DNA of 64,000 nt from Bacillota bacterium (lineage in GTDB: Bacteria; Bacillota; Clostridia; TANB77; CAG-465). The position numbers and the translations under genes are program-made. The notes beneath the pieces are model-generated. The model ran no database searches. It saw nothing but the letters and a program-made list of their open reading frames with translations, and was not told the DNA's origin. Shown here one piece after another: positions 6,851 through 63,210 of the stretch. Every line of letters begins with the position of its first letter. The first letter of the stretch is position 1. The stretch spans positions 116,820-180,819 of the forward strand of contig JAEWRE010000039.1 of NCBI GenBank assembly GCA_023460235.1. The letters are read 5' to 3'.

Positions 6851-7207
6851 CTAGAATAATCCTGGAACGTTAAATTGTCCAAGTTCAGCTTGCATCATAG
6901 AATCAGCTTTATTCAATGCTTCATTTACGGCAGTTAGTATTAAATCTTGTAGCATATCAATATCATCTTTATCCACAACTTCAGGTTTAATTATAATTTG
7001 TTTTATAACTTTATCTCCTGTAGCCTTAACAATTACAGCACCGCCACCTGCTGAAGTTTCAATTTCTTTTTTTGATACCTCTTCTTGCTTTAATTGCATG
7101 TCTTGTTGCATTTTTTGTGCTTGTTTTAACATATTTTGCATGTTTCCAAAGCCGCCACCGCCACCTGGAAATCCTCCAAATTTACCCATATTAATCTCCC
7201 CTTTCAA
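6851..7207 (-). CDS. ybaB: Nucleoid-associated protein YbaB/EbfC
   Basis: 118 aa with a Gly-rich N-terminus and conserved MLQDL...A.NEAL. The classic dnaX-ybaB-recR order is present. Confidence 0.85.
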
Positions 7208-49169: not shown

Positions 49170-49493
49170 CTATTTGTATTCTGATAATTTAAAGATTATT
49201 AAGTCTATTATTCTGCTAATTTTCAAAGTTTTCGGATGAGTTAGACCATAACTTTCAATATGGTAATTAAGACTTTTTTTTAGTGAATTTATTTCTTCTA
49301 CAGTATAAAAAAAATCTTTTATATTTACATCTAAAAATTTAGATATAGTATAAAGTGAATATATACTAGTATTTTCAATTTTATTATTTTCTAAATCTGA
49401 TAAATGTGAAATTGATATACCTGTACCTTTATGTATTTGATCTAGCGTATATCCTTTTTCTTCCCTAATAATTTTCATTGTTATTACTATCAT
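49170..49493 (-). CDS. SinR-like XRE HTH regulator
   Basis: 107 aa. HTH KGYTLDQIHKGTGISISHLSDLENNK, similar in size and layout to SinR (HTH plus a short helical tail). Confidence 0.45.
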   Translation of the reverse strand: MIVITMKIIREEKGYTLDQIHKGTGISISHLSDLENNKIENTSIYSLYTISKFLDVNIKDFFYTVEEINSLKKSLNYHIESYGLTHPKTLKISRIIDLIIFKLSEYK

Positions 49494-50290: not shown

Positions 50291-51991
50291 TTAATTTTTT
50301 ATATCTACAATTTGCATTTCTGCATATCTTACTTGACCTGCGCCACCATCTTGTTGAAGTGAATGTATTATTGATTTAAACACTGTCCACGTTCCAGGTA
50401 TAGTATTCCATGCAACTTTATTAGTAGAAATCCTCATCATTCTGGCATTATTAGTTGCACCCCATATTCTCTCAAAATTGAATGAAATATTTTTGTATGA
50501 ACCATATTGATCAAATAATCCAACAACAGTGGCAGCATTATCAATTTGACAATTATCAGTATAGATTAACATCATTTGTGCATATCTACTATATCCTTCA
50601 GGTAATGGAATTCTTGAATCAATATCACTTTTAAAATTATAAAATATATTTCCTAAGTCTTTCCAACTTCCCTTATCTATATTTACAGGTGTATCTCCAG
50701 CTATACCAAATATGGGAAAACTTGCAACAATCTTATTTTTTGTAATACTATATAATTCTCTTCCTTTTCTAGCAGATAATGCATCTGTTGTACTATTACT
50801 ATCAAAGCTATCTACAACTATGGATTCAAGAGGTACGCTATTTTTAGCTTTAATAATTGAATATTCAACGAAATAAGGTTGTAAATTATTATGAGCCTGA
50901 CCGCCACCACCAAGATTAAATTTTAAATTTTGTAATGAATTTTCTGAATTATAAATCGTTGCATCTTTGTATTTTCCAGTAACTGAATTTGAACTACTAA
51001 ACACACCTTGAGGAGCCCAGGTATTAGAACCATTAGTGGATCCATGAAAATCTATCTGACCAGTAACATTAGGTATTTGATTTAAAGTTAAAGTATGTGT
51101 TTTTGCACCACCTATTGTTCCTATCTTATTAAACTCTGTTTGAGAGCTATCATGTGATACTACAACCTTCCCTTTTTTATTTGGAAGATTAAATGTTGTT
51201 GAACCATCCCCTTCTCCATACATAATTCCTATAACATCAAATAAGTCTTTATATTCTGTTCTTGATACTGCTCTACCATCTTCAATAAGCCAATTACTAG
51301 GAGGATTAGCAGAAGGATAATATCCTTCAAATCCTATAGGAAGGGTATCTGAATTTATTGTGCCTTCACTATCAACTTTAATTCCATCTGGACCAAACAC
51401 AATAATATATTTTCCATCATCAATATTTGTATAATGATATTTTGGTATATTTACATTTACGCTTGTTGCTATTGCTAATTTTATATAGAATTTTTTACCT
51501 TTAGTAAAACCTTGTGCACCTAAATCGCCTTGAAGTAAACTTTCTATTGAAAATTCACTTTTTTGTTCTTTATATACTATTTTTGATAAGTCAATTTCGA
51601 ATGGGCCATATTCAGTTCCTTCAGTTTTACCATTTTGATTATATGGAGATTCACTAGACCAATATTTTATATATTTTACATCATACTTCTCTAAATATTT
51701 TAACTTACCAGTTGCTTTAAATTTAACTTTTTCATCAACATCATTTGACCTTGTAGCCTCAACACTAGTAAAGTATGGGGTATAAAAAATTTCAACATTC
51801 AAAGGCTTAATGCTACTAGAAGTATTTCCCCTACTATCTACAATGGTTACTTTAACATAATCTTTTCCATCTTTTAAACTTTTAATCAATTTATCATCAT
51901 TTAAATAAATTGTTTCTGTTAAATAGGAATATCCATTCGGAAATATTATACCTTCCATTATAACAACACCTCCTCTGTTTGCCCGTTCCAT
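50291..51991 (-). CDS. Tail fibre / receptor-binding protein with phage tail-collar domain
   Basis: 566 aa. GGGGQAHNNLQPYFVEYSIIKA collar signature. Gly-rich, beta-rich. Confidence 0.55.
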   Translation of the reverse strand: MERANRGGVVIMEGIIFPNGYSYLTETIYLNDDKLIKSLKDGKDYVKVTIVDSRGNTSSSIKPLNVEIFYTPYFTSVEATRSNDVDEKVKFKATGKLKYLEKYDVKYIKYWSSESPYNQNGKTEGTEYGPFEIDLSKIVYKEQKSEFSIESLLQGDLGAQGFTKGKKFYIKLAIATSVNVNIPKYHYTNIDDGKYIIVFGPDGIKVDSEGTINSDTLPIGFEGYYPSANPPSNWLIEDGRAVSRTEYKDLFDVIGIMYGEGDGSTTFNLPNKKGKVVVSHDSSQTEFNKIGTIGGAKTHTLTLNQIPNVTGQIDFHGSTNGSNTWAPQGVFSSSNSVTGKYKDATIYNSENSLQNLKFNLGGGGQAHNNLQPYFVEYSIIKAKNSVPLESIVVDSFDSNSTTDALSARKGRELYSITKNKIVASFPIFGIAGDTPVNIDKGSWKDLGNIFYNFKSDIDSRIPLPEGYSRYAQMMLIYTDNCQIDNAATVVGLFDQYGSYKNISFNFERIWGATNNARMMRISTNKVAWNTIPGTWTVFKSIIHSLQQDGGAGQVRYAEMQIVDIKN

Positions 51992-52875
51992 TCTATTATT
52001 GCCTTTTTTAAGGTAGCTCCATTTTTTGCTTTAAGACTATCATTCTTTATAGCAATATAAGCATTAGATAGGGTTCCATATAATTCAAATCCAGCAATTA
52101 TATTGTTTATTTCTTGATTTGAACTAGTCCCACCCTCAATATCAAATATTCCAAAAATAGGGATCTCTGGATTACTATTAACAACCTTACATTCACCATT
52201 TGCAGTAGTAGTTCCTAAATATGTATTGTCAATATAAGTATAGAGATTAATTCTTATATTGGCTATTTTACTATTTGGCAATAAATTATAAAAAGTATCT
52301 TTTATATCAGCTAAATTGAGAGTAAAATTCTTAGAATTTTTTTCAAACTTTTTTATATTTATCCATGTATTATTTACATACATATCTAAATCTAATTTAT
52401 AATTATAATTTTGATTGGTTATATCTGATATATTTATATTTAAGTTATTTCCAATATCAAAATTTATATTAGAACTTATATTACTTGATACATAACCAGT
52501 TGGGGTTGTTAATGTTCTATCGGCTCCAGTATCGTATGTTATACTCCCTCCATTTGTGCTTTTAAATATAACTCTACAACCATTTATTTGGTTACTTCCA
52601 TATCCTTTATTAAACCAATAATAATCAGAATCAGAAGGAAAGTAACTTGTACCACTCCCATTATTTGGTGTGTTTGCTTTTATTTGTCTACCATAATTAG
52701 TTCCTTCAGTATATACATCTGAAATTATATTATAACCAAAATAATATCCATTATCTATTGCCCACGTTAATTTCCATCGTATACCAAGTCTAGGACCATC
52801 TCTTGTTGTTTCATATTCAACAATATAATTTATATGTCCCCATTGATTTTCTTTGCCTTGTGCGAATACTTGCAT
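51958..52875 (-). CDS. Tail fibre/baseplate-associated protein
   Basis: 305 aa, Asn/Gly/Tyr-rich beta-type composition. Positioned between the Tal-like and fibre genes. Confidence 0.35.
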   Translation of the reverse strand: MQVFAQGKENQWGHINYIVEYETTRDGPRLGIRWKLTWAIDNGYYFGYNIISDVYTEGTNYGRQIKANTPNNGSGTSYFPSDSDYYWFNKGYGSNQINGCRVIFKSTNGGSITYDTGADRTLTTPTGYVSSNISSNINFDIGNNLNINISDITNQNYNYKLDLDMYVNNTWINIKKFEKNSKNFTLNLADIKDTFYNLLPNSKIANIRINLYTYIDNTYLGTTTANGECKVVNSNPEIPIFGIFDIEGGTSSNQEINNIIAGFELYGTLSNAYIAIKNDSLKAKNGATLKKAIIEWNGQTEEVLL

Positions 52876-52886
52876 AATTTTTCCTC

Positions 52887-54761
52887 CTAACTATCCTTAT
52901 CATAAGATATTCCTACTCTTCCATCCTGTAGCACTGTTATTCTCATTTTTCCTATATTTAAACGTTCAAAGAAGGTTGCTCTATCAAATGTTGAATTATC
53001 GCCATTAAATTCGGCTTTAACTTTATTTGTTTCTCTATTTTTTATTATTGTTCCTTCAGCACCAAAAATTGTCTTAGTATTTTTTATTGTACTTTCAACC
53101 TCAAATCCATTATGGCCAAAAGAATAATTGGTTCCTACTAATTCACCAGGATAACTTTGATAACCAAGTCGTCCCCCTTTATTAAACATACAATCACAAA
53201 ATAATGTATAATTATTATCACTTAAAATTTCAATCTCGACTTGTGACATAGTACTATTTACTGGAAATTCTACCTCTGTAAAAATACCTGGCTCGATTTC
53301 AATATTATATATTTTTTCTATACCTGTTGTTATTTTAACTTGTACATTTGTAAGCTCTAATTTATATATAATACAACTAAATGTATATTCTGTATTTTCC
53401 TTTATTTTTATAGGAGCAAACTTTACACTACCATTATTTATTTTTATTGCTGTTTTAGATATAGTATTTTCTAAGATTTCATTATTTTGTACAATACTCA
53501 CGTTGCCATTTTTTATATTACCATCATATCCTAAACGTAAAGTACTATCTTGTAGAAGGTTCAAACCACCAGCTTGCTGTAAATTTATATTCACATTATC
53601 AACATTTTGTGTTATTTTGCTTATTCTCGTGTTATTTTCTTCTACTAAACTTGCTACTGATTGTATAGTTTGATCTTGCTTATTTACTATAATTTCTGTC
53701 CTTTTAGCAATTTCTAGAGCTGTAACTGGGTTCTCATATTCAATACTAGCCTTTGTTATACTAGGTGCTTCAAATCCTATTTCAGTTCCTTCAATATTAA
53801 TTTTTAATATTATTGTTTTAATACTTTCTCCAGATTTATTTTTTACAGTTACAGCATCACCTACTTCAATGTAAGGATATAAACAATTTTTTAAAGTCAT
53901 TGAAGAGTAACCAAAACCTGTGGATTTATTATATATTTGGCTTATTAATTGTTCTCTTTTATTTTGTGTATAGGCAAAGGGATTATCTACAAGCATTAAG
54001 TAATTTTCTCCATAGTATTGAATTCCTTCTTCCCATCTCATAGTAACATTTTCACCTTCAATATTAGATGCTCCAAGTCCAACAACTGTAATAGGTTGAA
54101 TATCTCTATTATCTTCAAATTCTGAATATTCATTAGTTTCAATTACTATATCAGTCATATTTGCAAATATTAATTTTAATTTGTCATCTATTATTTTGGC
54201 AAAATTACAACTTATACCTGAAATAGCACTAATAACATTCCCAAATTGTGCTCCATCAAATTGATTGCTATCAACAATAAATCCTGAATTTTCAAATTCA
54301 GTAAAATCATATTCAACATCACACTTAATGCAACATTCTTCAAGCACATCTAGTATTGTTACGCTACCACTTGAATAATTTAATTCTGAGTTGTACGATT
54401 TTGCAAACTTTAAACCATAATCATAAGCAGTTACTTTAATACTTTCTTTTGTATCACTTTCCTTTATATCATAAACTATAAATGTTCCATATCCTATTGA
54501 TTCCCAAGTCCCATCTTCCAGCTTAAACTCCTTAAATGCCTTAAAATCTTTTTGTTTGAAATCAATATTACTATCTGAATAATCAAATTCAATTCTCTTC
54601 ATAATAAAATTTTGTATAAAATTTCCATCTTTGTAGCAATCATCATAAAGATTAAACCACAGATATATTCTATCTGTGGTTCCATTTAAGATAATATAAT
54701 CTCTTTCAATTATATTATCTTTTTTTAGTGTATTTTTTAAAGCAATAGAAACATTTTTCAT
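52887..54761 (-). CDS. Tail-associated (Tal-like) / prophage endopeptidase-tail family protein
   Basis: 624 aa, in the position and size class of siphovirus Tal. Start ATG overlaps the upstream stop (ATGA). Confidence 0.45.
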   Translation of the reverse strand: MKNVSIALKNTLKKDNIIERDYIILNGTTDRIYLWFNLYDDCYKDGNFIQNFIMKRIEFDYSDSNIDFKQKDFKAFKEFKLEDGTWESIGYGTFIVYDIKESDTKESIKVTAYDYGLKFAKSYNSELNYSSGSVTILDVLEECCIKCDVEYDFTEFENSGFIVDSNQFDGAQFGNVISAISGISCNFAKIIDDKLKLIFANMTDIVIETNEYSEFEDNRDIQPITVVGLGASNIEGENVTMRWEEGIQYYGENYLMLVDNPFAYTQNKREQLISQIYNKSTGFGYSSMTLKNCLYPYIEVGDAVTVKNKSGESIKTIILKINIEGTEIGFEAPSITKASIEYENPVTALEIAKRTEIIVNKQDQTIQSVASLVEENNTRISKITQNVDNVNINLQQAGGLNLLQDSTLRLGYDGNIKNGNVSIVQNNEILENTISKTAIKINNGSVKFAPIKIKENTEYTFSCIIYKLELTNVQVKITTGIEKIYNIEIEPGIFTEVEFPVNSTMSQVEIEILSDNNYTLFCDCMFNKGGRLGYQSYPGELVGTNYSFGHNGFEVESTIKNTKTIFGAEGTIIKNRETNKVKAEFNGDNSTFDRATFFERLNIGKMRITVLQDGRVGISYDKDS

Positions 54762-55135
54762 TACACTATCACCTCACTACTTTTTTCTAATATGACATCA
54801 AATTCAGAATATGATTCCCCATATTTACTATATATTAAATTTTTAGATCCTTTGGTTACTATAAAATTATATTTTTTATAACTTCTTGTATTTGGATTCC
54901 AAACTTCATATTCTCCATCTACAAATCTTTCATTATATTCTTTTATAGTTGAACCATCTAGTTGCCCTATATTTATTCCAATTGTTAAAGTATTATAAGA
55001 AGCATAAATGATTTTTATGCTCCCATCTGCCTTTATAGATTTATTTAAAACAACTGGTTGTTCATCAAATTCATATCCTTCACTCAATATATTACTAAAT
55101 TTATATGTTCCTTTTTTTATTAAATAATCTTCCAT
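54761..55135 (-). CDS. Small tail component (distal-tail position)
   Basis: 124 aa, immediately after the tape measure. Short for a canonical Dit. Confidence 0.3.
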   Translation of the reverse strand: MEDYLIKKGTYKFSNILSEGYEFDEQPVVLNKSIKADGSIKIIYASYNTLTIGINIGQLDGSTIKEYNERFVDGEYEVWNPNTRSYKKYNFIVTKGSKNLIYSKYGESYSEFDVILEKSSEVIV

Positions 55136-55144
55136 ATGTACCTC

Positions 55145-56368
55145 CTAGAAGCCATACTGTAATTCTAATTTTTTATTTACTCTATTTGTGTTTTTTGCAA
55201 CTTTTTCTCCATCTAGTTCTACGGTAGAGTTTATAATTATTTCTTTATTATCACTTATGGCTTGTAATGTTGCCTGTGTTTTATCTTCATTTTCCACTTG
55301 CATTGTTGCTGTAGACGTTAAATTAGCACTTAATTTTCCTGTTTCAATATCTATTGTTTTTTGCATATCAGCATAAACATATTTTATATTTTTTATAAAT
55401 CCCTCTCCAATGCCCAGAGCTATATACTTGCCTACTTCATCCCTAAATTCTTTTGATGGACTATGTATTCCTAATACGCTTTTCATTCCATCTAATATTC
55501 CTTTTGCAAAACTTGCAATTTTATCTTTTAACCATGCAGCAGCATTATTTATTCCATTCCACAAGCCTTCAACAATGTTTTTACCTATATTTAACATATT
55601 GGCCGGTAAATCATTAAAAAAATTAGATATGTTTTCTATTATTAATGGTATGTTTTCCATGATCATATTTTTCATATTAATAATCCATAATTCAATATTA
55701 TCTATAGTTTTTAATAACAAATTTAAAATATTTTCTGGTAATTCTCTAAACCAATTTATTACACTATTTATTATTTTTGGTAGTTCTGTTGTAATCCAAC
55801 TAGTTATATCTATTCCAAATTTAATAATATACCCTAAAACCACCCCTATTAGATACCCTACATTATATGGTAATTCTTTGAACCAGTTTATTGCCATAGA
55901 TATCCAACTAGGTATTGTTTCAATAAAAAAATTACCTATAGCATTGAATACTTCTGATATCACATCTTTAACATTGTTAAAGATGTCAATAATTGCATTT
56001 CTAAAATCTTCATTTGTTGTCCATAGATATATTATTGATGCAATTAATCCTGCAATCAAGCCTACAATTATAGGAATAGGATTTGACAACAACATTGCAA
56101 AGTTTAAATTAATCTGTGATGTCGTCATTACATCTAATGCATTGCTTACTATCTGTATAATTTCACTTACTTCTTTTGCTAAACCTAATGCTGCATCAAA
56201 TGAAGCTATTACCTCATTCATAGACATTGATGATTGTAAAGCCATAAACACCCCTGTTAACGGAATTATTACTTTCACTAAATTATTTAATTTATCTGTG
56301 GCTTCTTGTGCATCACTTGCAACAGAGACAATTGGATTTTTTATCGATTTATTTGATTCTTTTGCCAT
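55145..56368 (-). CDS. Tail tape measure protein (unusually short, 407 aa)
   Basis: Position after the chaperone pair, helical composition, internal hydrophobic segments (IPIIVGLIAGLIASIIYLW) typical of tape measure proteins. Confidence 0.5.
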   Translation of the reverse strand: MAKESNKSIKNPIVSVASDAQEATDKLNNLVKVIIPLTGVFMALQSSMSMNEVIASFDAALGLAKEVSEIIQIVSNALDVMTTSQINLNFAMLLSNPIPIIVGLIAGLIASIIYLWTTNEDFRNAIIDIFNNVKDVISEVFNAIGNFFIETIPSWISMAINWFKELPYNVGYLIGVVLGYIIKFGIDITSWITTELPKIINSVINWFRELPENILNLLLKTIDNIELWIINMKNMIMENIPLIIENISNFFNDLPANMLNIGKNIVEGLWNGINNAAAWLKDKIASFAKGILDGMKSVLGIHSPSKEFRDEVGKYIALGIGEGFIKNIKYVYADMQKTIDIETGKLSANLTSTATMQVENEDKTQATLQAISDNKEIIINSTVELDGEKVAKNTNRVNKKLELQYGF

Positions 56369-56466: not shown

Positions 56467-57042
56467 TTACCAAAAAACACTACCAAAATCCCTTTCTTTT
56501 TCTTCTGTTGTGCGTACATCAGGCAACGCATATAATTTTCTTAGTTTTTTATAGTGATTCTTTGTTTCTTTATCTTTAATCTTAGATAAATCAATTGCTC
56601 TATAACCCATTATTTTTGATATTTGGGTATTTTCATTTAATCCATTAAACATAGCTTTGAATTCCCACCAGTGTAAGCATTTTACTTTGTTTAAATTTAT
56701 TTGATATTGTTCTAAAAAAGCATCAAAAATATAATCTGCATCAAATTGATAACTGTATATTTGATTTGATCTATTATCATTATTTTCAGAACTGACTAAT
56801 TCTTTCTTTTCATCTCTTCCACATCGATAAAACCAAAGCATGTCTTTTATAGCAATATTGATATCCTTAATTTTAGATAAATCATAATAGAGATTAAGAG
56901 CAAGTAGAATTTTATCTTTTTCAAATATTTTATTATCTTGCATAAGTAATTCAAATTTAATAGAAGTCCTAAAGTCTGTATCTATTTCAAGTCCATTTTG
57001 AGTTATTTGGGGTAATTTATCTAATAATATATTAGTTAGCAT
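56467..57042 (-). CDS. Tail assembly chaperone (gpT / Gp15-like position)
   Basis: 191 aa. Synteny only. Confidence 0.35.
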   Translation of the reverse strand: MLTNILLDKLPQITQNGLEIDTDFRTSIKFELLMQDNKIFEKDKILLALNLYYDLSKIKDINIAIKDMLWFYRCGRDEKKELVSSENNDNRSNQIYSYQFDADYIFDAFLEQYQINLNKVKCLHWWEFKAMFNGLNENTQISKIMGYRAIDLSKIKDKETKNHYKKLRKLYALPDVRTTEEKERDFGSVFW

Positions 57043-57045
57043 ATA

Positions 57046-57399
57046 CTACTTCCTTTTTTGTACTCTTCTTTGTTCTCTATTAGGTTGATATCTATTAAAA
57101 GTATTTTCAAATTCCTTTTGCTGTTCTAATTTCTCTTTAACAATATCCTCAAAAGCAGTTATACAATCTTGTAAATTATTTTTTTCACCAAAAATATTAA
57201 GTGATACTCCTTCACCGAAAACATTATCAAAGAATTCCTTTATTAGTATACATTCTAATTTTATAGTTTCAGATAATTTCATATCTTTTTTTTCATATTC
57301 TTCTGCCTTTTCTTTAACCTTTTGCACTTCAATTTCAAATTTTTCAACGCAATCAGCATCTAAAAAATCAAAATCAACTTCTACTTCTCTTATTTTCAT
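57046..57399 (-). CDS. Tail assembly chaperone (gpG-like position)
   Basis: 117 aa, acidic, directly after the major tail protein. Confidence 0.35.
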   Translation of the reverse strand: MKIREVEVDFDFLDADCVEKFEIEVQKVKEKAEEYEKKDMKLSETIKLECILIKEFFDNVFGEGVSLNIFGEKNNLQDCITAFEDIVKEKLEQQKEFENTFNRYQPNREQRRVQKRK

Positions 57400-57893: not shown

Positions 57894-58307
57894 TTAATTT
57901 CCTCCTTCAAAATAAACAACTTGCATTTTTACTATGTAGTTTGCAATCGTCTCATTTTTTTGCAAAATATATCCTGGTGTTGTACATTTTATACTTTCAA
58001 TTCCAGATATATTAAGCAAATTACTAGATTTGTTTTGTGTTTCAATCCATTTATTAAAATCTTCAAAAAATTTACTGTTAGTAAGATTTTGAAGATCAGT
58101 AAATGAGCCACTAACAGTAAAATCAAATGTCATTTGCTTTAAACTACTACCATCAGCATATTGTTTATAAACTAAATTAGATTGTGTTAAATCCATGCTG
58201 TAATTACTTATTTCATCACTAACATAATCAACAATTATTTTTCCATTTTCAAAACATGGACATGTTGCTATAATGTCTTTAACTAATTCTATCTTTGATT
58301 TAGACAT
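57894..58307 (-). CDS. Putative tail completion/terminator protein
   Basis: 137 aa. First gene of the tail string. Confidence 0.3.
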   Translation of the reverse strand: MSKSKIELVKDIIATCPCFENGKIIVDYVSDEISNYSMDLTQSNLVYKQYADGSSLKQMTFDFTVSGSFTDLQNLTNSKFFEDFNKWIETQNKSSNLLNISGIESIKCTTPGYILQKNETIANYIVKMQVVYFEGGN

Positions 58308-58882
58308 TTTAATATACTCCTCTACCTCTTTGCAAATTTTTCTCCTTATATATATAGAAAATTACAATTCAATTATAATATTGTATTTAAAAGTATTTAA
58401 CTTTTATTCAGATTATAATAAAAAATTAATGTTTATCTTTTTACTCTTTAACCAAGATAGTTTGTATTTGTTTTCTTATTTTTATATAATACTTTGAGTA
58501 TAAATCATATTAAAACTTTAACATTATAATATCTCTACGTATAGATATTATTTAATATAAATCTATATGTTTATATGATATATACTCTAATAAAAATAAG
58601 TTTCTAATATAAATATATTTCTATTTTTAGTATTAATTTTTTTATATACTTTGAATTGTTAGATTCTACATATTTTCAGATTTTAAATTTTGCATTGAAA
58701 CTTTTGATAATGATTTTAACTAATTTGATAATTTATCCTCCAGCTGAAAGGTTGTTAATTTATTAAATTAGTATCTCATCATCACTATTGTATAATCTAA
58801 ACTATTTATTAGTTAGATTATATGCTTCTTTAACGTCTAGCTCCAAAGACGAAATTACCTTAGATGCTATTAATTTTTTTAA

Positions 58883-59308
58883 TTATTTTACATCCAAATT
58901 TTTATCTTTTAATTGTGTAAGTATATCTTTTAATTTATTTGGATATGGAACTCCTAATTTTGTTGTATTTTCTAAAAGTGAGATTCCTTCGTTGGCAATA
59001 TAAAAGAATATTGATAGTTTCCTTAGCATATCAATGTTAAGTGCTTGATCTAGCATGTTGCATAAACCTATTAAACCAAAAATTAAGAATTTTTTAAATA
59101 TACCTTTATATCCAACCTCAGAATTTAAATTTTTATTTATAAATATTGCCACTGCAAGTCCAGTTATAAAGTCAGTAAATGTAAATGCAACTAAAACACT
59201 CATAGAAATATCCCATCCACCTAAATAATTTAATATCAATGTACCAAGTGTAGCAAATATTAAACAAATCCATTGCCCAATTTCACTTAAATTACTTAAT
59301 CTAAACAT
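58883..59308 (-). CDS. Holin, TcdE / phage_holin_4_1 family
   Basis: 141 aa, 3 TM. Block GGWDISM...FTDFITGLAVAI...GYKGIFKKFLIFGLIG...GVPYPNKLKDIL parallels C. difficile TcdE. Confidence 0.65.
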   Translation of the reverse strand: MFRLSNLSEIGQWICLIFATLGTLILNYLGGWDISMSVLVAFTFTDFITGLAVAIFINKNLNSEVGYKGIFKKFLIFGLIGLCNMLDQALNIDMLRKLSIFFYIANEGISLLENTTKLGVPYPNKLKDILTQLKDKNLDVK

Positions 59309-59524
59309 TTTTCACCTCCCTTTTTTCTAAATAAAAAAACATTGTACTTATACAACGTTTTTTATTAATAGAATTTATATTAAATCTATGACTTATTACA
59401 AGCTAATTAAATTAAAGTAAATTAATTTGTAAAATTTATCTAATGTTTATATCTATTGCTATTATACATTATAACATGGTTTTTATATAAATTTCTATTC
59501 TTTAAATCCCAGTTTTTTCCCAAT

Positions 59525-60157
59525 TTAATAATTTGTTCTGATAATACCTAATAATTTAGTTTTAATGTTAGATAGTTTATTCTGAAGCCTTTTTTGAGTC
59601 AGCTCCTTATTAAAATTTTTATTATATGAAATTTCAATATCAGACCAATCCATAATTTCATAATACTTACATTCTATCAAAAACATTTCTTTTGGACTTA
59701 ATATATTAAAAGCTATCTCTAGTTTACGTATCTCAATTTCAATTAAGGCTTTCTCACTTTTTGCTATTTTTATTAATTCTTCAGCTTGTTTTTGATTTAA
59801 TTCATTTCTTATTGCTTCGCTTTCAACAGGACTATATAATCTATTTTTTGCTCTAGGCATTCCAAATGTGGATTCTGGAGTATTAGTAAAAATATTTTCA
59901 TTTTCTTCAAGGGCTTTATTCCATGTATTTATTCTTTCAGATAATGTAGCAATTTTTGCTTTATTATTTATATAATTTTTTAGCATTCTATTTACATCTT
60001 TCATATCTAATAAGGCATCTGCACATGGTGTACTACTTTCTCTATTAAATTTTCTTGGTTCTTTACAAAATCTACAATAACTATAACTTTCACACATACC
60101 ACCATTACACTTTATAGCTCCTTTTTCTAGTTTATCTTGTATTTGTTCTTTATTCAT
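59525..60157 (-). CDS. Putative late-gene transcriptional activator: sigma-70 region-4-like C-terminal HTH with N-terminal Cys4 cluster
   Basis: 210 aa. C-terminus LSPKEMFLIECKYYEIMDWSDIEISYNKNFNKELTQKR resembles region 4 / ArpU-RinA-type activators. N-terminus CNGGMCESYSYCRFC. Confidence 0.4.
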   Translation of the reverse strand: MNKEQIQDKLEKGAIKCNGGMCESYSYCRFCKEPRKFNRESSTPCADALLDMKDVNRMLKNYINNKAKIATLSERINTWNKALEENENIFTNTPESTFGMPRAKNRLYSPVESEAIRNELNQKQAEELIKIAKSEKALIEIEIRKLEIAFNILSPKEMFLIECKYYEIMDWSDIEISYNKNFNKELTQKRLQNKLSNIKTKLLGIIRTNY

Positions 60158-60202
60158 ATACCCTCTTTCCTCCTTTTAAAATTATTATATCTTATTTTAA
60201 TA

Positions 60203-60385
60203 TTAATCTTTTTTACACTCATTGTGCTTTTCATATGTATAATTTAATACTCTAATAATCTCTTTAGCTAATGACTGATCTTTATTTTTATAAAATATCC
60301 TTTGGATTAAATTATGTATATCAGCATAATTACTTTGATGTATTTTTTCATTTCTAATATAATCTTCAATAGTGTAGTATTTCAT
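60203..60385 (-). CDS. Small protein (60 aa), first gene leftward of the divergent control region
   Basis: ORF only. Confidence 0.3.
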   Translation of the reverse strand: MKYYTIEDYIRNEKIHQSNYADIHNLIQRIFYKNKDQSLAKEIIRVLNYTYEKHNECKKD

Positions 60386-60448
60386 TTTCTATTTCCTCCC
60401 TCATATTACTAACTTTTCATATATTTATTTTAACTTAAGAAAACCTTT

Positions 60449-60618
60449 TGATCGTATAAATAGTTTTTAATTCATATCAATTTATTTTCTTGTTACGATA
60501 ATTATATACCACTTTAATTATCGTGTCAAGTATATTTTTAAATTTATTATCGTCTGCCGTTTATTATGTAATTTTTATTGACACGATAATATGAATATGA
60601 TATAATTATATTGACAAG
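60449..60618. promoter_or_regulatory. Divergent control region with repeated operator half-sites (ACGATAAT / ATTATCGT) and a sigma-A promoter for the repressor gene
   Basis: Near-palindrome CTTGTTACGATAATTA-N11-TAATTATCGTGTCAAG at 60489-60530. Further half-sites at ~60547 and 60586. -35 TTGACA (60579) and -10 TATAAT (60602). RBS AAGGAG before ATG 60649. Confidence 0.5.
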
Positions 60619-60648
60619 AAAATTTTTTAAAAAAATAAGGAGAAAATA

Positions 60649-61017
60649 ATGAATGAATCTGATAGAGAATTAATTGGTAAGAGACTAAAGTCAAGAAGAG
60701 AGTTAGCTGGATTAACTCAAGAACAAGTTGGTGAAAAAATAGGAAAAACCTTTGCTACTGTTGCAAAATATGAAAGTGGTGAAATAAAAAATATAGATAT
60801 AATGGTTATTAGCACAATTGCTGATATAACTGAAACTGACATTGACTATTTATTATTAAAAAATGATGATCCAAACCCTAAGAGCAATTATATAAAGTAT
60901 AAACATTTAAATAATTCTTTAATAGGTAGAGTTTCTAAAAAAATGGAAGGGATGTCAGATAACGAGCTGCAAATGCTTGATAAGATAATAGATGCTCTTA
61001 TGAATGAAAAGAAATAA
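60649..61017 (+). CDS. XRE-family HTH repressor (ImmR/CI-like)
   Basis: 122 aa with an N-terminal HTH (LTQEQVGEKIGKTFATVAKYESGE). Confidence 0.6.
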   Translation: MNESDRELIGKRLKSRRELAGLTQEQVGEKIGKTFATVAKYESGEIKNIDIMVISTIADITETDIDYLLLKNDDPNPKSNYIKYKHLNNSLIGRVSKKMEGMSDNELQMLDKIIDALMNEKK

Positions 61018-61026
61018 AATTGGAGA

Positions 61027-61449
61027 ATGTGTGTTATGAAAAAATTTTATGATTATATACAAAAGGAAAATATTATATATAAAGAAGATTATATTGATGA
61101 AAATATAAAGGGACTATGCATAAAACTACCGAACAGTAAGACTGCTATTATTCTTAACAATAGTCTAATAGAAAATAAAATTGAAAGAAACTGTATTCTT
61201 GCGGAAGAATTAGGACACTATTATTGTGATGCCCTTTATTCACCATTTTGTAAAGATCAAACGATAATAGATCGAAATGAATATAGAGCAAAGAAATGGG
61301 CATTTAAGTCTATCATAGGTAAAAAATTAAATCAAAATATAAAAAAGTATAAAAATATGCTTAAATATGAAGTTGCTGAAGAAATTGGTGTAACTGAAGA
61401 TATGCTTGATATGGCATATGATTATTATAAAAGAAATGAGGCGCTTTAA
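61027..61449 (+). CDS. ImmA/IrrE-like (DUF955) putative metallopeptidase with variant motif (EELGH instead of HExxH)
   Basis: 140 aa. ILAEELGHYYCD. Translationally coupled to the repressor gene. Confidence 0.4.
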   Translation: MCVMKKFYDYIQKENIIYKEDYIDENIKGLCIKLPNSKTAIILNNSLIENKIERNCILAEELGHYYCDALYSPFCKDQTIIDRNEYRAKKWAFKSIIGKKLNQNIKKYKNMLKYEVAEEIGVTEDMLDMAYDYYKRNEAL

Positions 61450-61479: not shown

Positions 61480-61927
61480 GATATGAATTAAAATATACTT
61501 ACAAAGAAAAAACAAATTATAAAACAATTAAATTAAGCAAAGCTATGAATATAGATACTGAATTACAAAGATTTGTAATTGCTATTGAAGATAAAGTATC
61601 ACCTACCTCATCTATTAACTTTACAGTTTATGCTCAAAATGGTTGGATGAATATGCTTATCCAAAATTATCTGCCAAAACAATATAAGGTTACAAGGAAC
61701 AATTAAACAATAAAATAATTCCTTATTTTGGAAGTATGCAATTGAAAGACATTACAACTTATAATATTCAACTTTTTTTAAATGATTTATCAAAGGAATT
61801 TATAGTCGAGAAAATAGTAAAAGGTGAGAAAATAACACAATTAACACAATTAACAGGATGCACAATAAAAAATACAAAGATTAATTTCAGTTATGCTCAA
61901 TTCAGCAGTAAAGTGGCAATTAATTGA
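61480..61927 (+). pseudogene. Tyrosine-integrase remnant (N-terminal AP2-like/core-binding fragments only, frameshifted, catalytic domain absent)
   Basis: Frame a: YELKYTYKEKTNYKTIKLSKAMNIDTELQRF...YLPKQYK. Frame b: IPYFGSMQLKDITTYNIQLFLNDLSKEF (classic integrase N-terminal signature). The ORF ends about 70 nt before the att repeat. Confidence 0.5.
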
Positions 61928-62073: not shown

Positions 62074-62547
62074 CTAAATATTTTGCTTGATATTTTTTTT
62101 ATCATAACTTGATTTTTTTACTGTAACAAGAATACTAAATAATAATGTTTGTATTAATATTTCTAGTAAACCTCCAATTTGTAAACTTAATGGTTCTTTA
62201 GAAGGATAAAGATATATAAATTCTTCAATTGAAAAAGAAGCTGTACCAGGTGTATTAAAAATTCCTAATATTATAAGAATCAACCATACTCTTAACCATC
62301 CATATTTATTATTGATATAACTATTTCTAATTAATACTAGAACTATTCCAAATAGAATACCTCTAATAATTTGAAAAAGTGGTGCCATTTTAACTATAAT
62401 ACTACTCATATCTCTTCGAGTTGAACTATCAATTAGGGAACTCTGATAATTAAATATTTGTGAAAAAACAATACCACAAACTACATATGTTATAACATGA
62501 ATTATAGTTACTTTAAATATAAATTTTATTTTCTCATTTTTTATCAT
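62074..62547 (-). CDS. Membrane protein (4 TM)
   Basis: 157 aa. Confidence 0.35.
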   Translation of the reverse strand: MIKNEKIKFIFKVTIIHVITYVVCGIVFSQIFNYQSSLIDSSTRRDMSSIIVKMAPLFQIIRGILFGIVLVLIRNSYINNKYGWLRVWLILIILGIFNTPGTASFSIEEFIYLYPSKEPLSLQIGGLLEILIQTLLFSILVTVKKSSYDKKNIKQNI

Positions 62548-62586
62548 TTTTCTTACTATTTTATATAGATATTTTGCAGATATATT

Positions 62587-63210
62587 TTATTTACTATTTT
62601 GCTTTTCTTTTCGACTTTGAATATACGTTACAAGTGAACATATAAATATATATATTATAAAAAATAGAATAAATTGCATATATGTATTGCTAGATAATAT
62701 TGGATATGGTGCCATAAAATGTGAAAATAATAAATTGTATATTATAGACAATGGTATAAACACAATAATCCATATATTGATTTTCCAAAATTTATTTTGA
62801 GATAACAATTTATCTTTGTTAGAAGCCTGATATTTTCCTATTGTAAAGATCATAGTTCCAATTATCATAAATATAAAGCCTGCTAAAATTGCATCATCTG
62901 CCCTTGTATTATTCCATATAAAAATTGATATTAATAATCCTAAAAAATTTAAAGAGGTCGCTACTGAATTAAAAATATATGTGTTTTCTGTACTATTATC
63001 TCTTTTGTTATTTTCTATTCCCCTTAGTAATAAATCCGTAGTAACATCAAAAAAGTCACTTAGTAGTATTATTTTATCAATATCAGGTATTGATTGTCCA
63101 CTCTCCCACTTTGAAACCGCTTGCCTTGATACCCCTATTTTATCTGCAAGTTCTTCTTGTGAAATTCCTTTAATTTTTCTAAATTCTAAAATCCTATCTG
63201 CTAATGTCAT
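62587..63210 (-). CDS. Membrane-bound XRE HTH regulator (N-terminal HTH plus C-terminal 4-TM domain)
   Basis: 207 aa. HTH ISQEELADKIGVSRQAVSKWESGQ. Confidence 0.5.
   Translation of the reverse strand: MTLADRILEFRKIKGISQEELADKIGVSRQAVSKWESGQSIPDIDKIILLSDFFDVTTDLLLRGIENNKRDNSTENTYIFNSVATSLNFLGLLISIFIWNNTRADDAILAGFIFMIIGTMIFTIGKYQASNKDKLLSQNKFWKINIWIIVFIPLSIIYNLLFSHFMAPYPILSSNTYMQFILFFIIYIFICSLVTYIQSRKEKQNSK

Follow-up and report, generated by a model that had tools for sequence, protein, structure and literature searches.

The window analysed in this work is a stretch of 64,000 nucleotides from a clostridial bacterium (Bacillota bacterium, GenBank assembly GCA_023460235.1, contig JAEWRE010000039.1). 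Our subject is a compact element of ~12 kb that it carries at 49.6-61.4 kb, and the 210-aa regulator that is proposed to switch this element on. Each open reading frame (ORF) from 49.1 to 61.5 kb was compared with Pfam, PHROGs and NCBIfam, and by these profile scans every ORF of the element was assigned. The regulator and holin ORFs of the first-pass annotation are confirmed with their coordinates, and each has a good ribosome-binding site. An XRE repressor and, after it, an ImmA-like metalloprotease are encoded on the plus strand, and divergent from them runs a minus-strand series formed by a 60-aa ORF, the regulator, a holin, a 575-bp spacer, the tail terminator, the tube, the chaperones, the tape measure protein, distal and fibre genes, and an M23 lysin (Table 1). 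The scans of all ORFs at 49.6-61.4 kb found no terminase, portal, capsid, sheath or replication gene. With a terminator, a tube, two chaperones, a tape measure protein, a hub, fibres, a holin and a lysin, the locus is by gene content an F-type tailocin, that is, a head-less phage-tail element. The same set of genes is present in L001/L007, a contig of the metagenome-assembled genome 'Bacillota bacterium OH_CBB_1', whose regulator is 81% identical to that of the window. In L001 the gene order is that of the window, the gene lengths are equal (apart from the tape measure protein), head genes are likewise absent, and host-type genes follow beyond the repressor.

Table 1. Genes and control features of the tailocin element (positions in the window; HTH, helix-turn-helix; RBS, ribosome-binding site).
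Feature	Position	Strand	Evidence or remark
Lysin, M23 endopeptidase, 222 aa	49596..50264	-	PF01551 E 1.1e-25; endolysin PHROGs
Distal tail, baseplate and receptor-binding genes (124, 624, 305, 566 aa)	50291..55135	-	phrog_6616 tail protein
Tape measure protein, 407 aa	55145..56368	-	phrog_1272 E 2.6e-55; phrog_58 E 2.8e-44
Two tail assembly chaperone-type genes, DUF6673 (117 aa) and Phage_Gp15 (191 aa)	56467..57399	-	PF20378 E 2.3e-28; PF06854 E 2.8e-51
Tail tube protein, 162 aa	57403..57891	-	phrog_3099 E 2.7e-33
Tail terminator/completion protein, 137 aa	57894..58307	-	phrog_3266 tail completion E 1.5e-27
Non-coding spacer, 575 bp, AT-rich	58308..58882	-	no ORF >= 40 aa on coding strand
Holin, Phage_holin_4_1/TcdE family, 141 aa	58883..59308	-	PF05105, TIGR01593, phrog_199; first late-operon gene
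Leader hairpin and U-run, AAAAAACGUUGUA-UAAG-UACAAUGUUUUUUU	59333..59363	-	A-tract-flanked; ends ~12 nt before holin RBS
Late promoter core TGTTATAATGTATAAT, extended -10 with tandem hexamer	59461..59476	-	TGnTATAATrTATAATAG; no conserved -35
Direct repeat TGGGAAAAAACTGGGA, presumed regulator binding site	59507..59522	-	GGGA-N7-GGGA, words in 11-bp phase
Late regulator, 210 aa	59525..60157	-	RBS AGGAGG
Regulator domains: Cys4 (residues about 1-54), helical hairpin (62-152), sigma-region-4-like HTH (155-208)	60157-59996 (Cys4)		
60-aa ORF, first gene of early transcript	60203..60385	-	ORF list
Genetic switch, divergent consensus sigma-A promoters	60484..60623	.	promoter scan and repeats
XRE/CI-type repressor, 122 aa	60649..61017	+	PF01381 HTH_3 E 1.8e-12; phrog_8/phrog_4 repressor families
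ImmA/IrrE-like metalloprotease, 140 aa, presumed anti-repressor	61027..61449	+	phrog_87 E 1.8e-15

Its profile match and its position make the regulator a probable, distant member of the Ltr superfamily (RinA, ArpU, LtrA-C). Its sole family match is to phrog_36, the family that holds RinA and DUF1492/LtrB, over residues 51-179 (E 2.1e-6, 28.5 bits). Canonical proteins were scanned in the same way: RinA of 80alpha matches phrog_36 with E 7.7e-39, and a 132-aa ORF of Sfi21, which we take to be the DUF1492/LtrB homologue of that phage, with E 7e-24. The ArpU-type protein gp66 of A118, which belongs to phrog_248 (E 5.8e-38), cross-matches phrog_36 at E 4e-6, and from these levels the window regulator appears to be roughly as distant from RinA/LtrB as ArpU is. 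None of PF07374, PF04545, PF08281 and the NCBIfam ArpU/RinA models gave a match at E <= 10, TIGR02937 stayed below threshold (E 0.077), and a profile of the whole regulator returned nothing meaningful from the PDB sequences. When a hidden Markov model (HMM) of the C-terminal family was run on the ORFs of at least 60 aa of four phage loci, gp66 of A118 and RinA of 80alpha ranked first, at only 6 and 3 bits. The ArpU/RinA-type resemblance read by eye in the first-pass annotation is thus borne out by phrog_36 and by the gene position described below, while the profile search that it proposed was negative for the curated Sigma70_r4, ArpU and RinA models.

Relatives of this regulator are rare. A word index gave only eight homologues among 5.8 billion proteins, a HMMER profile search of 1.84 billion representatives gave 198 proteins of the family, and tblastn of the regulator and two relatives that lack the cysteines against 50,697 GenBank phages gave no match. 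In complete prophages, homologues with 47-66% identity close the early region and are followed by a gap of 250-650 bp, small ORFs, and then TerS, TerL and portal genes (L002, L004, L006, L011 and L021). This is the slot of a late activator, the last early gene before the late operon, which in the window and in L001 is formed by holin and tail genes.

A structural model of the regulator was obtained with AlphaFold2 from an 86-sequence alignment, with a predicted local distance difference test score (pLDDT) of 94.4 and a predicted template-modelling score (pTM) of 0.84. It consists of a small domain at the N-terminus, a long helical hairpin (residues 62-84 and 110-152) and a three-helix C-terminal HTH; a first model from 9 sequences (pLDDT 66) had returned only coiled-coil noise in Foldseek. 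In superposition, the C-terminal HTH matches region 4 of the sigma factors FliA, SigL, SigF and WhiG. Thus, the description as a sigma-region-4-like HTH holds for the modelled fold, even if the curated sigma region 4 models fail, whereas the description as a sigma factor does not. The protein lacks a region 2, as had been remarked from the letters, and no sigma model reaches threshold.

The N-terminal domain deserves separate consideration. Its conserved cysteines are C22, C28, C31 and C45, within the pattern LQxxLExxAxxxNGGxCxSYxYCxFCxEPxxxxRxSxTPCADA. The Cys4 cluster first noticed by eye is confirmed only in part: its motif had been mis-delimited, since C17 of the stretch CNGGMCESYSYCRFC is variable among homologues and is not one of the four. 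Neither is the cluster a mere decoration of the N-terminus, as the first reading implied; it belongs to a separable domain of ~54 aa that is found alone and fused elsewhere. According to the search that gave the 198 proteins, the regulator is a fusion: residues 54-208 resemble a family of ~165 aa without this N-terminus, and residues 1-54 match stand-alone proteins of 57-113 aa as well as domains fused to other partners. The domain had no match in Pfam, PHROG or PDB. It is joined to RinA-type regulators in three ways: at the N-terminus, at the C-terminus (P0085, a DUF1492/Sigma70_r4 protein with phrog_36 E 1.2e-15), and as an overlapping adjacent gene (L013, 6001-6601, where a separate 77-aa Cys4 gene overlaps a 136-aa phrog_36 gene, E 7e-10). 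The alignment by hhalign of the family profile with this 136-aa neighbour was not significant, though the correct helix was aligned. Further copies occur in phage early regions, such as an 89-aa protein preceding a replication-organiser gene (L015, 5012-5281) and a 169-aa protein between the YqaJ exonuclease and DUF1351/RecT genes (L016, 6001-6510). No Cys4-domain ORF was found within 3 kb of 11 Cys-less relatives. Given this absence and the occurrence in other phage early regions, we take the Cys4 unit to be an accessory and separable domain, rather than an obligatory partner of the regulator; it probably binds metal. Its role could be that of a structural Zn site, a contact to RNA polymerase (RNAP), oligomerisation, or a redox or metal input.

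In the alignment of the window with L001, conservation is higher in the first ~90 nt after the regulator stop codon than in the remaining leader, and these ~90 nt contain the GGGA direct repeat and the extended -10 element of Table 1, separated by 33 nt that include an A-tract. This geometry is identical in seven loci (window, L001, L002, L004, L006, L021 and L022), whose regulators are 52-81% identical. The extended -10 core is conserved in eight independent loci, and the promoter scan lists the window copy with its TG extension. Both the repeat and the extended -10 occur exactly once in the 64 kb of the window, so that one promoter presumably serves the whole holin-tail-lysin operon. It had been suggested that a late-promoter motif might be shared by the two intergenic gaps of the region; the motif is present only in the gap at 59309-59524 and not in that at 58308-58882. 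The accompanying idea that release timing depends on the activator fits with this arrangement, in which a single activator-associated promoter probably times everything.

Comparable layouts are found in the rest of the superfamily. The Cys-less relatives carry at the same position two to four repeats of other words, also in 11-bp phase (for example GGGGCAG, GTACCAG, ACTACCT, TTTAGGAG and GGACCGTTTTT), and each set is followed by a -10 and by a conserved (G/A)TATTGT-like stretch. In 80alpha (L020, 622-807), TGGCAG-N5-TGGCAG stands directly after rinA, and in A118 (L018, 3697-3760), TGGCAC-N5-TGGCAC stands directly after gp66, both being followed by a -10-like box. Phased repeats and a -10 after the regulator stop codon are, as read from these loci, a trait of the Ltr superfamily with allele-specific repeat words, and the window regulator has a cognate control region of this kind between its own gene and the start of the late operon. 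Allele-specific words agree with the specificity published for RinA alleles (PMC3152322), direct repeats have been proposed as the binding sites of the phi13 Ltr (PMC13123087), and Ltr-dependent late promoters have been reported for other members of the family (PMC3152322, PMC3753634, PMC13123087). As separate observations on the late leaders of complete prophage relatives, those of L004 (5830-5900) and L009 (10760-10815) have the block TTGTTAATAAAAATTGATAAAAAAGCATTGGTAGTACGCTAATTACTACCACCA in common, and the late leaders of L010 (2330-2480) and L011 (about 6900-7010) contain tRNA-like sequences with a T-arm and CCA.

A hairpin with a U-run lies between this promoter and the holin. Its minimum free energy is -13.8 kcal/mol (z -5.5), and none of 200 shuffled sequences folds as well. 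L001 retains it despite divergence of the leader on either side, two of its pairs being changed. It contains only two G-C pairs, and strict terminator scans do not call it. We consider it a candidate weak terminator or attenuator. Rfam gave no match on 58200-60700.

Upstream of the early genes, the switch region is well preserved. The early promoter on the minus strand (60529-60501, TTGACA-17-TATAAT) and the divergent promoter on the plus strand (60578-60606, TTGACA-17-TG-TATAAT) both have 12 of 12 consensus positions, and four operator-like half-sites ACGATAAT overlap the two of them (inverted and direct repeats I1, I2, I15 and D3). The repressor is 85% identical to its L001 orthologue, with a ratio of nonsynonymous to synonymous substitution rates (dN/dS) of 0.09; the protease has a dN/dS of 0.05 and a weak match to Peptidase_M78 (E 0.008). 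The repressor/protease region is an intact immunity switch. The 60-aa ORF has no family match in Pfam, PHROGs or NCBIfam, and its L001 orthologue is 62% identical (dN/dS 0.16).

Within the late operon, the holin follows the RBS GGGAGGTG and matches PF05105 with E 3.5e-35 (121 bits, cutoff 22.2), the alignment spanning positions 5-116 of the 116 in the profile. Its match to TIGR01593, 'toxin secretion/phage lysis holin', has E 2.2e-23 (82.6 bits, cutoff 40.2). Three to four hydrophobic segments can be read from its sequence, in keeping with the multi-pass membrane topology expected of Phage_holin_4_1/TcdE-type holins, and it is 88% identical to its L001 orthologue (dN/dS 0.075). The assignment of the first-pass annotation to the TcdE family is confirmed by these matches, and a truncation, which that annotation had named as a possible objection, is contradicted by the full-length match. 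Its remark that the holin is separated from the lysin by the tail module is also correct, as the only lysin, the M23 peptidase (50264-49596), lies past all tail genes. The picture that it drew of a phage with a displaced holin has to be replaced by that of a head-less, tail-only element, in which a holin-first, lysin-last order is not unusual, as in the pyocin locus. The lysin has no signal peptide when its sequence is read directly, so that it is presumably holin-dependent. In the spacer behind the holin, only the two ends are conserved with L001 and the remainder poorly. Just past the holin stop there is a hairpin, CGUCUUUGGAGCUAGACG (58834-58851), conserved with L001 and without a U-run. 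The spacer may be the scar of a lost head module, or a site of RNA processing or stability.

The tube protein aligns with PDB entry 11OK across residues 7-158 (E 1.8e-10), and 11OK is the tube of an F-type tailocin of Clostridium histolyticum that was observed by cryo-electron microscopy and mass spectrometry (depositors' preprint). For particle production by the window element, this homology is indirect support. The 566-aa distal protein has Collar (PF07484) and Gp10_C domains, and the distal tail and fibre genes have L001 orthologues of the same length, with dN/dS of 0.16-0.26. The tape measure protein has 407 aa in the window (55145-56368) and 544 aa in L001 (14042-15676), the two loci being otherwise collinear, from which we infer that tail lengths differ between these closely related elements.

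The best explanation of this locus, to which we give a probability of about 0.62, is that one Ltr-type regulator switches on a single late promoter of a tail-only (F-type tailocin) operon. The steps are deduced from anatomy and homology. The XRE repressor would keep the early promoter off until stress inactivates it, probably via the ImmA-type protease. The early transcript would comprise only the 60-aa ORF and the regulator, whose HTH would bind the phased repeats that start directly past its own stop codon and, from there, would activate the extended -10 promoter, devoid of a -35. One transcript would then cover holin, tail structural genes and cytoplasmic M23 lysin, with the holin triggering release, so that particle assembly and holin-timed lysis would be set by one regulator. 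The Cys4 unit might modulate the regulator by one of the routes listed above. Several points weigh against this explanation. The Ltr membership stands on the position of the gene and on one PHROG match that looks sub-significant, the curated Pfam and NCBIfam models (Sigma70_r4, DUF1492, ArpU, RinA) being unmatched. Moreover, Foldseek of the deeper model against PDB gave nothing at E < 0.7. A consensus extended -10 promoter may work without an activator, and simple activation leaves the U-run hairpin between promoter and holin unexplained.

This hairpin is the starting point of an alternative in which the promoter is constitutive or weakly regulated, and the 210-aa protein is loaded onto RNAP via the GGGA repeats, perhaps during a sigma-dependent pause that the second TATAAT imposes, after which the leader terminator is read through, as with lambda Q at pR'-tR'-S. 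The order of regulator gene, promoter, -10-like repeat, U-run hairpin and holin-first late genes resembles that of a lambdoid Q cassette (Q-lambda, Q21, Q82), and Q-lambda, too, unites an HTH and a Cys4 zinc ribbon (PMC9388147). Relatives of the regulator add to this: strict intrinsic terminators stand in the late leaders of L002, L004, L009, L010 and L011 (6 in 3.25 kb, the background being 0.13 per kb), although some of them are mutually homologous and thus not independent; in L013 a full consensus promoter (TTGACA-17-TAAAAT) comes after the regulator gene, and next a hairpin; and in 80alpha and Sfi21 (L019, 3989-4091) a strong hairpin with a T-run separates the Ltr gene from the next gene. 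The RinA paper itself places a terminator between rinA and terS, as an inference, and reports that RinA depends on sequences lying >155 bp upstream of the terS 5' end as mapped (PMC3152322). On the other hand, the AT-rich hairpin of the window fails strict criteria, and loose matches to a hairpin plus T-run are frequent in AT-rich DNA here (about 6 per kb). Furthermore, the position of the second TATAAT, about -5 to +1, is outside the transcribed region where sigma-dependent pause elements sit, and the repeats are upstream of the promoter and not inside it. The regulator matches none of the three Q families of Pfam, no sequence or fold likeness to Q proteins was found, and a fusion of the phi13 P23 promoter (-200 to +50) was reported to be Ltr-dependent (PMC13123087). 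Owing to the weak hairpin, the hexamer upstream of +1 and the missing likeness to Q, we regard promoter-loaded antitermination as an unlikely, minority explanation.

Still less can be said for a dedicated sigma-type factor of the TcdR/UviA kind that would steer RNAP to a promoter of the holin in the manner of the clostridial loci for toxin and bacteriocin release, which was the proposal of the first-pass annotation. The superposition of the HTH on sigma region 4, the weak TIGR02937 match and the TcdE-family holin are in its favour. Against it, the closest family by HMM is RinA/LtrB, the -10 is of the extended type with a sigma-A consensus, the repeats are 33 nt upstream of this -10, beyond the reach of a sigma region 4 that reads a -35 in the holoenzyme, and the operon consists of tail genes and is not a toxin locus. 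Region 2 is missing, the sigma models fail, and the protein is not homologous to group 5 sigma-70 factors. The parallel to TcdR-TcdE and UviA-BCN5 is therefore one of logic only, and we consider a sigma factor here very improbable. A decaying prophage remnant, which would have lost its head module and whose drifting genes would include a regulator-holin pair without current function, is also improbable, if not to the same degree. It could account for the poorly conserved spacer, which stands where complete relatives have head genes, for the tape measure protein being shorter than in L001, and for the lack of a recognisable integrase beside the element. However, all 14 genes are intact in both lineages, at dS of 0.4-1.5, and 12 of the 14 gene pairs have dN/dS of 0.05-0.26 (Nei-Gojobori), the outliers, at about 0.5, being the tail terminator and the tape measure protein, whose length varies. 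This is the mark of selective maintenance and not of decay. In addition, switch, promoters and operators are intact, and the related clostridial locus does make particles.

The explanation that we prefer, activation of a single late promoter by an Ltr-type regulator, can be placed among known systems. With the Ltr superfamily (Quiles-Puchalt et al. 2013, PMC3753634) the locus shares the regulator as last gene before the late operon in complete prophage relatives, the C-terminal sigma-4-like HTH, the phased direct repeats with a -10 directly after, and the weak phrog_36 match. It differs in the length of the regulator (210 aa versus about 130-145 aa), which has a long helical hairpin and a Cys4 domain in addition, in the lack of matches to curated Ltr models, and in a tail-only operon that starts with a holin and not with terS. 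In TcdR-TcdE and UviA-BCN5, too, a dedicated positive regulator whose HTH is like sigma region 4 precedes a TcdE-family holin, but here the regulator is without sigma region 2 and the cargo is a phage tail instead of a toxin. F-type tailocins, such as the monocin and that of C. histolyticum, have the same content of regulatory genes, terminator, tube, two chaperones, tape measure protein, hub, fibres and lysis genes, with no head. The organisation of the Listeria monocin is parallel to that of the window, except that the monocin has a holin-lysin cassette, whereas in the window the holin opens the series of late genes and the M23 lysin closes it.

The Pseudomonas R/F-pyocin locus has this gene order and the same circuit logic: a repressor, a dedicated activator, the holin first, then tail genes and the lysin after them (prtN PA0610, hol PA0614, tail genes, lys PA0629, under PrtR/PrtN control). 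The pyocin proteins are unrelated to those of the window and the host is Gram-negative; PrtN is not known to be an Ltr-type protein. For this class of element, holin-first and lysin-last behind a dedicated activator is the classical order and not unusual.

Some neighbours of the element may be mentioned. Directly downstream of the lysin, a 107-aa protein (49170-49493, minus strand) unites an XRE-type HTH (PF12844/PF01381) with a Spo0E-like domain (PF09388, E 3.5e-7), an unusual fusion. Two membrane proteins of 207 and 157 aa adjoin the element on its other side (62074-63210, minus strand), the first of them having an N-terminal HTH and several predicted membrane segments. The ORFs at 61545-61927 had been taken by eye for N-terminal fragments of an integrase, for which Pfam gave no support.

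As judged from sequence comparison, then, the regulator is of the Ltr kind with an added Cys4 domain, and the locus is a further F-type tailocin. F-type tailocins of Clostridia have been documented in a preprint by the depositors of 11OK. What this locus would add is one with a readable minimal circuit, going from repressor and protease to the regulator, to one late promoter, and to holin, tail and lysin, which would be useful for engineering narrow-spectrum anti-clostridial particles. It also offers a conserved late-promoter motif that is easy to test. The Cys4 domain of ~54 aa is previously undescribed, and it appears as a mobile module of phage early regions with at least three joinings to RinA-type regulators.

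A broader proposal, which we think slightly less likely than antitermination in the window itself, is that the Cys4-Ltr proteins, and perhaps all Ltr proteins including RinA, are promoter-loaded antiterminators and thus a Gram-positive functional analogue of lambda Q. If this were true, the terminators between Ltr promoters and late genes would be explained, together with the >155 bp puzzle of RinA, and the Cys4 unit would be an RNAP-contacting metal module or an Fe-S/redox sensor; as a sensor, it would gate, in strict anaerobes, the release of tailocins and the late genes of prophages. Whichever the mechanism, the cis-layout described here points to a trait shared across the Ltr superfamily, and it may bear on the >155 bp gap of RinA (PMC3152322).

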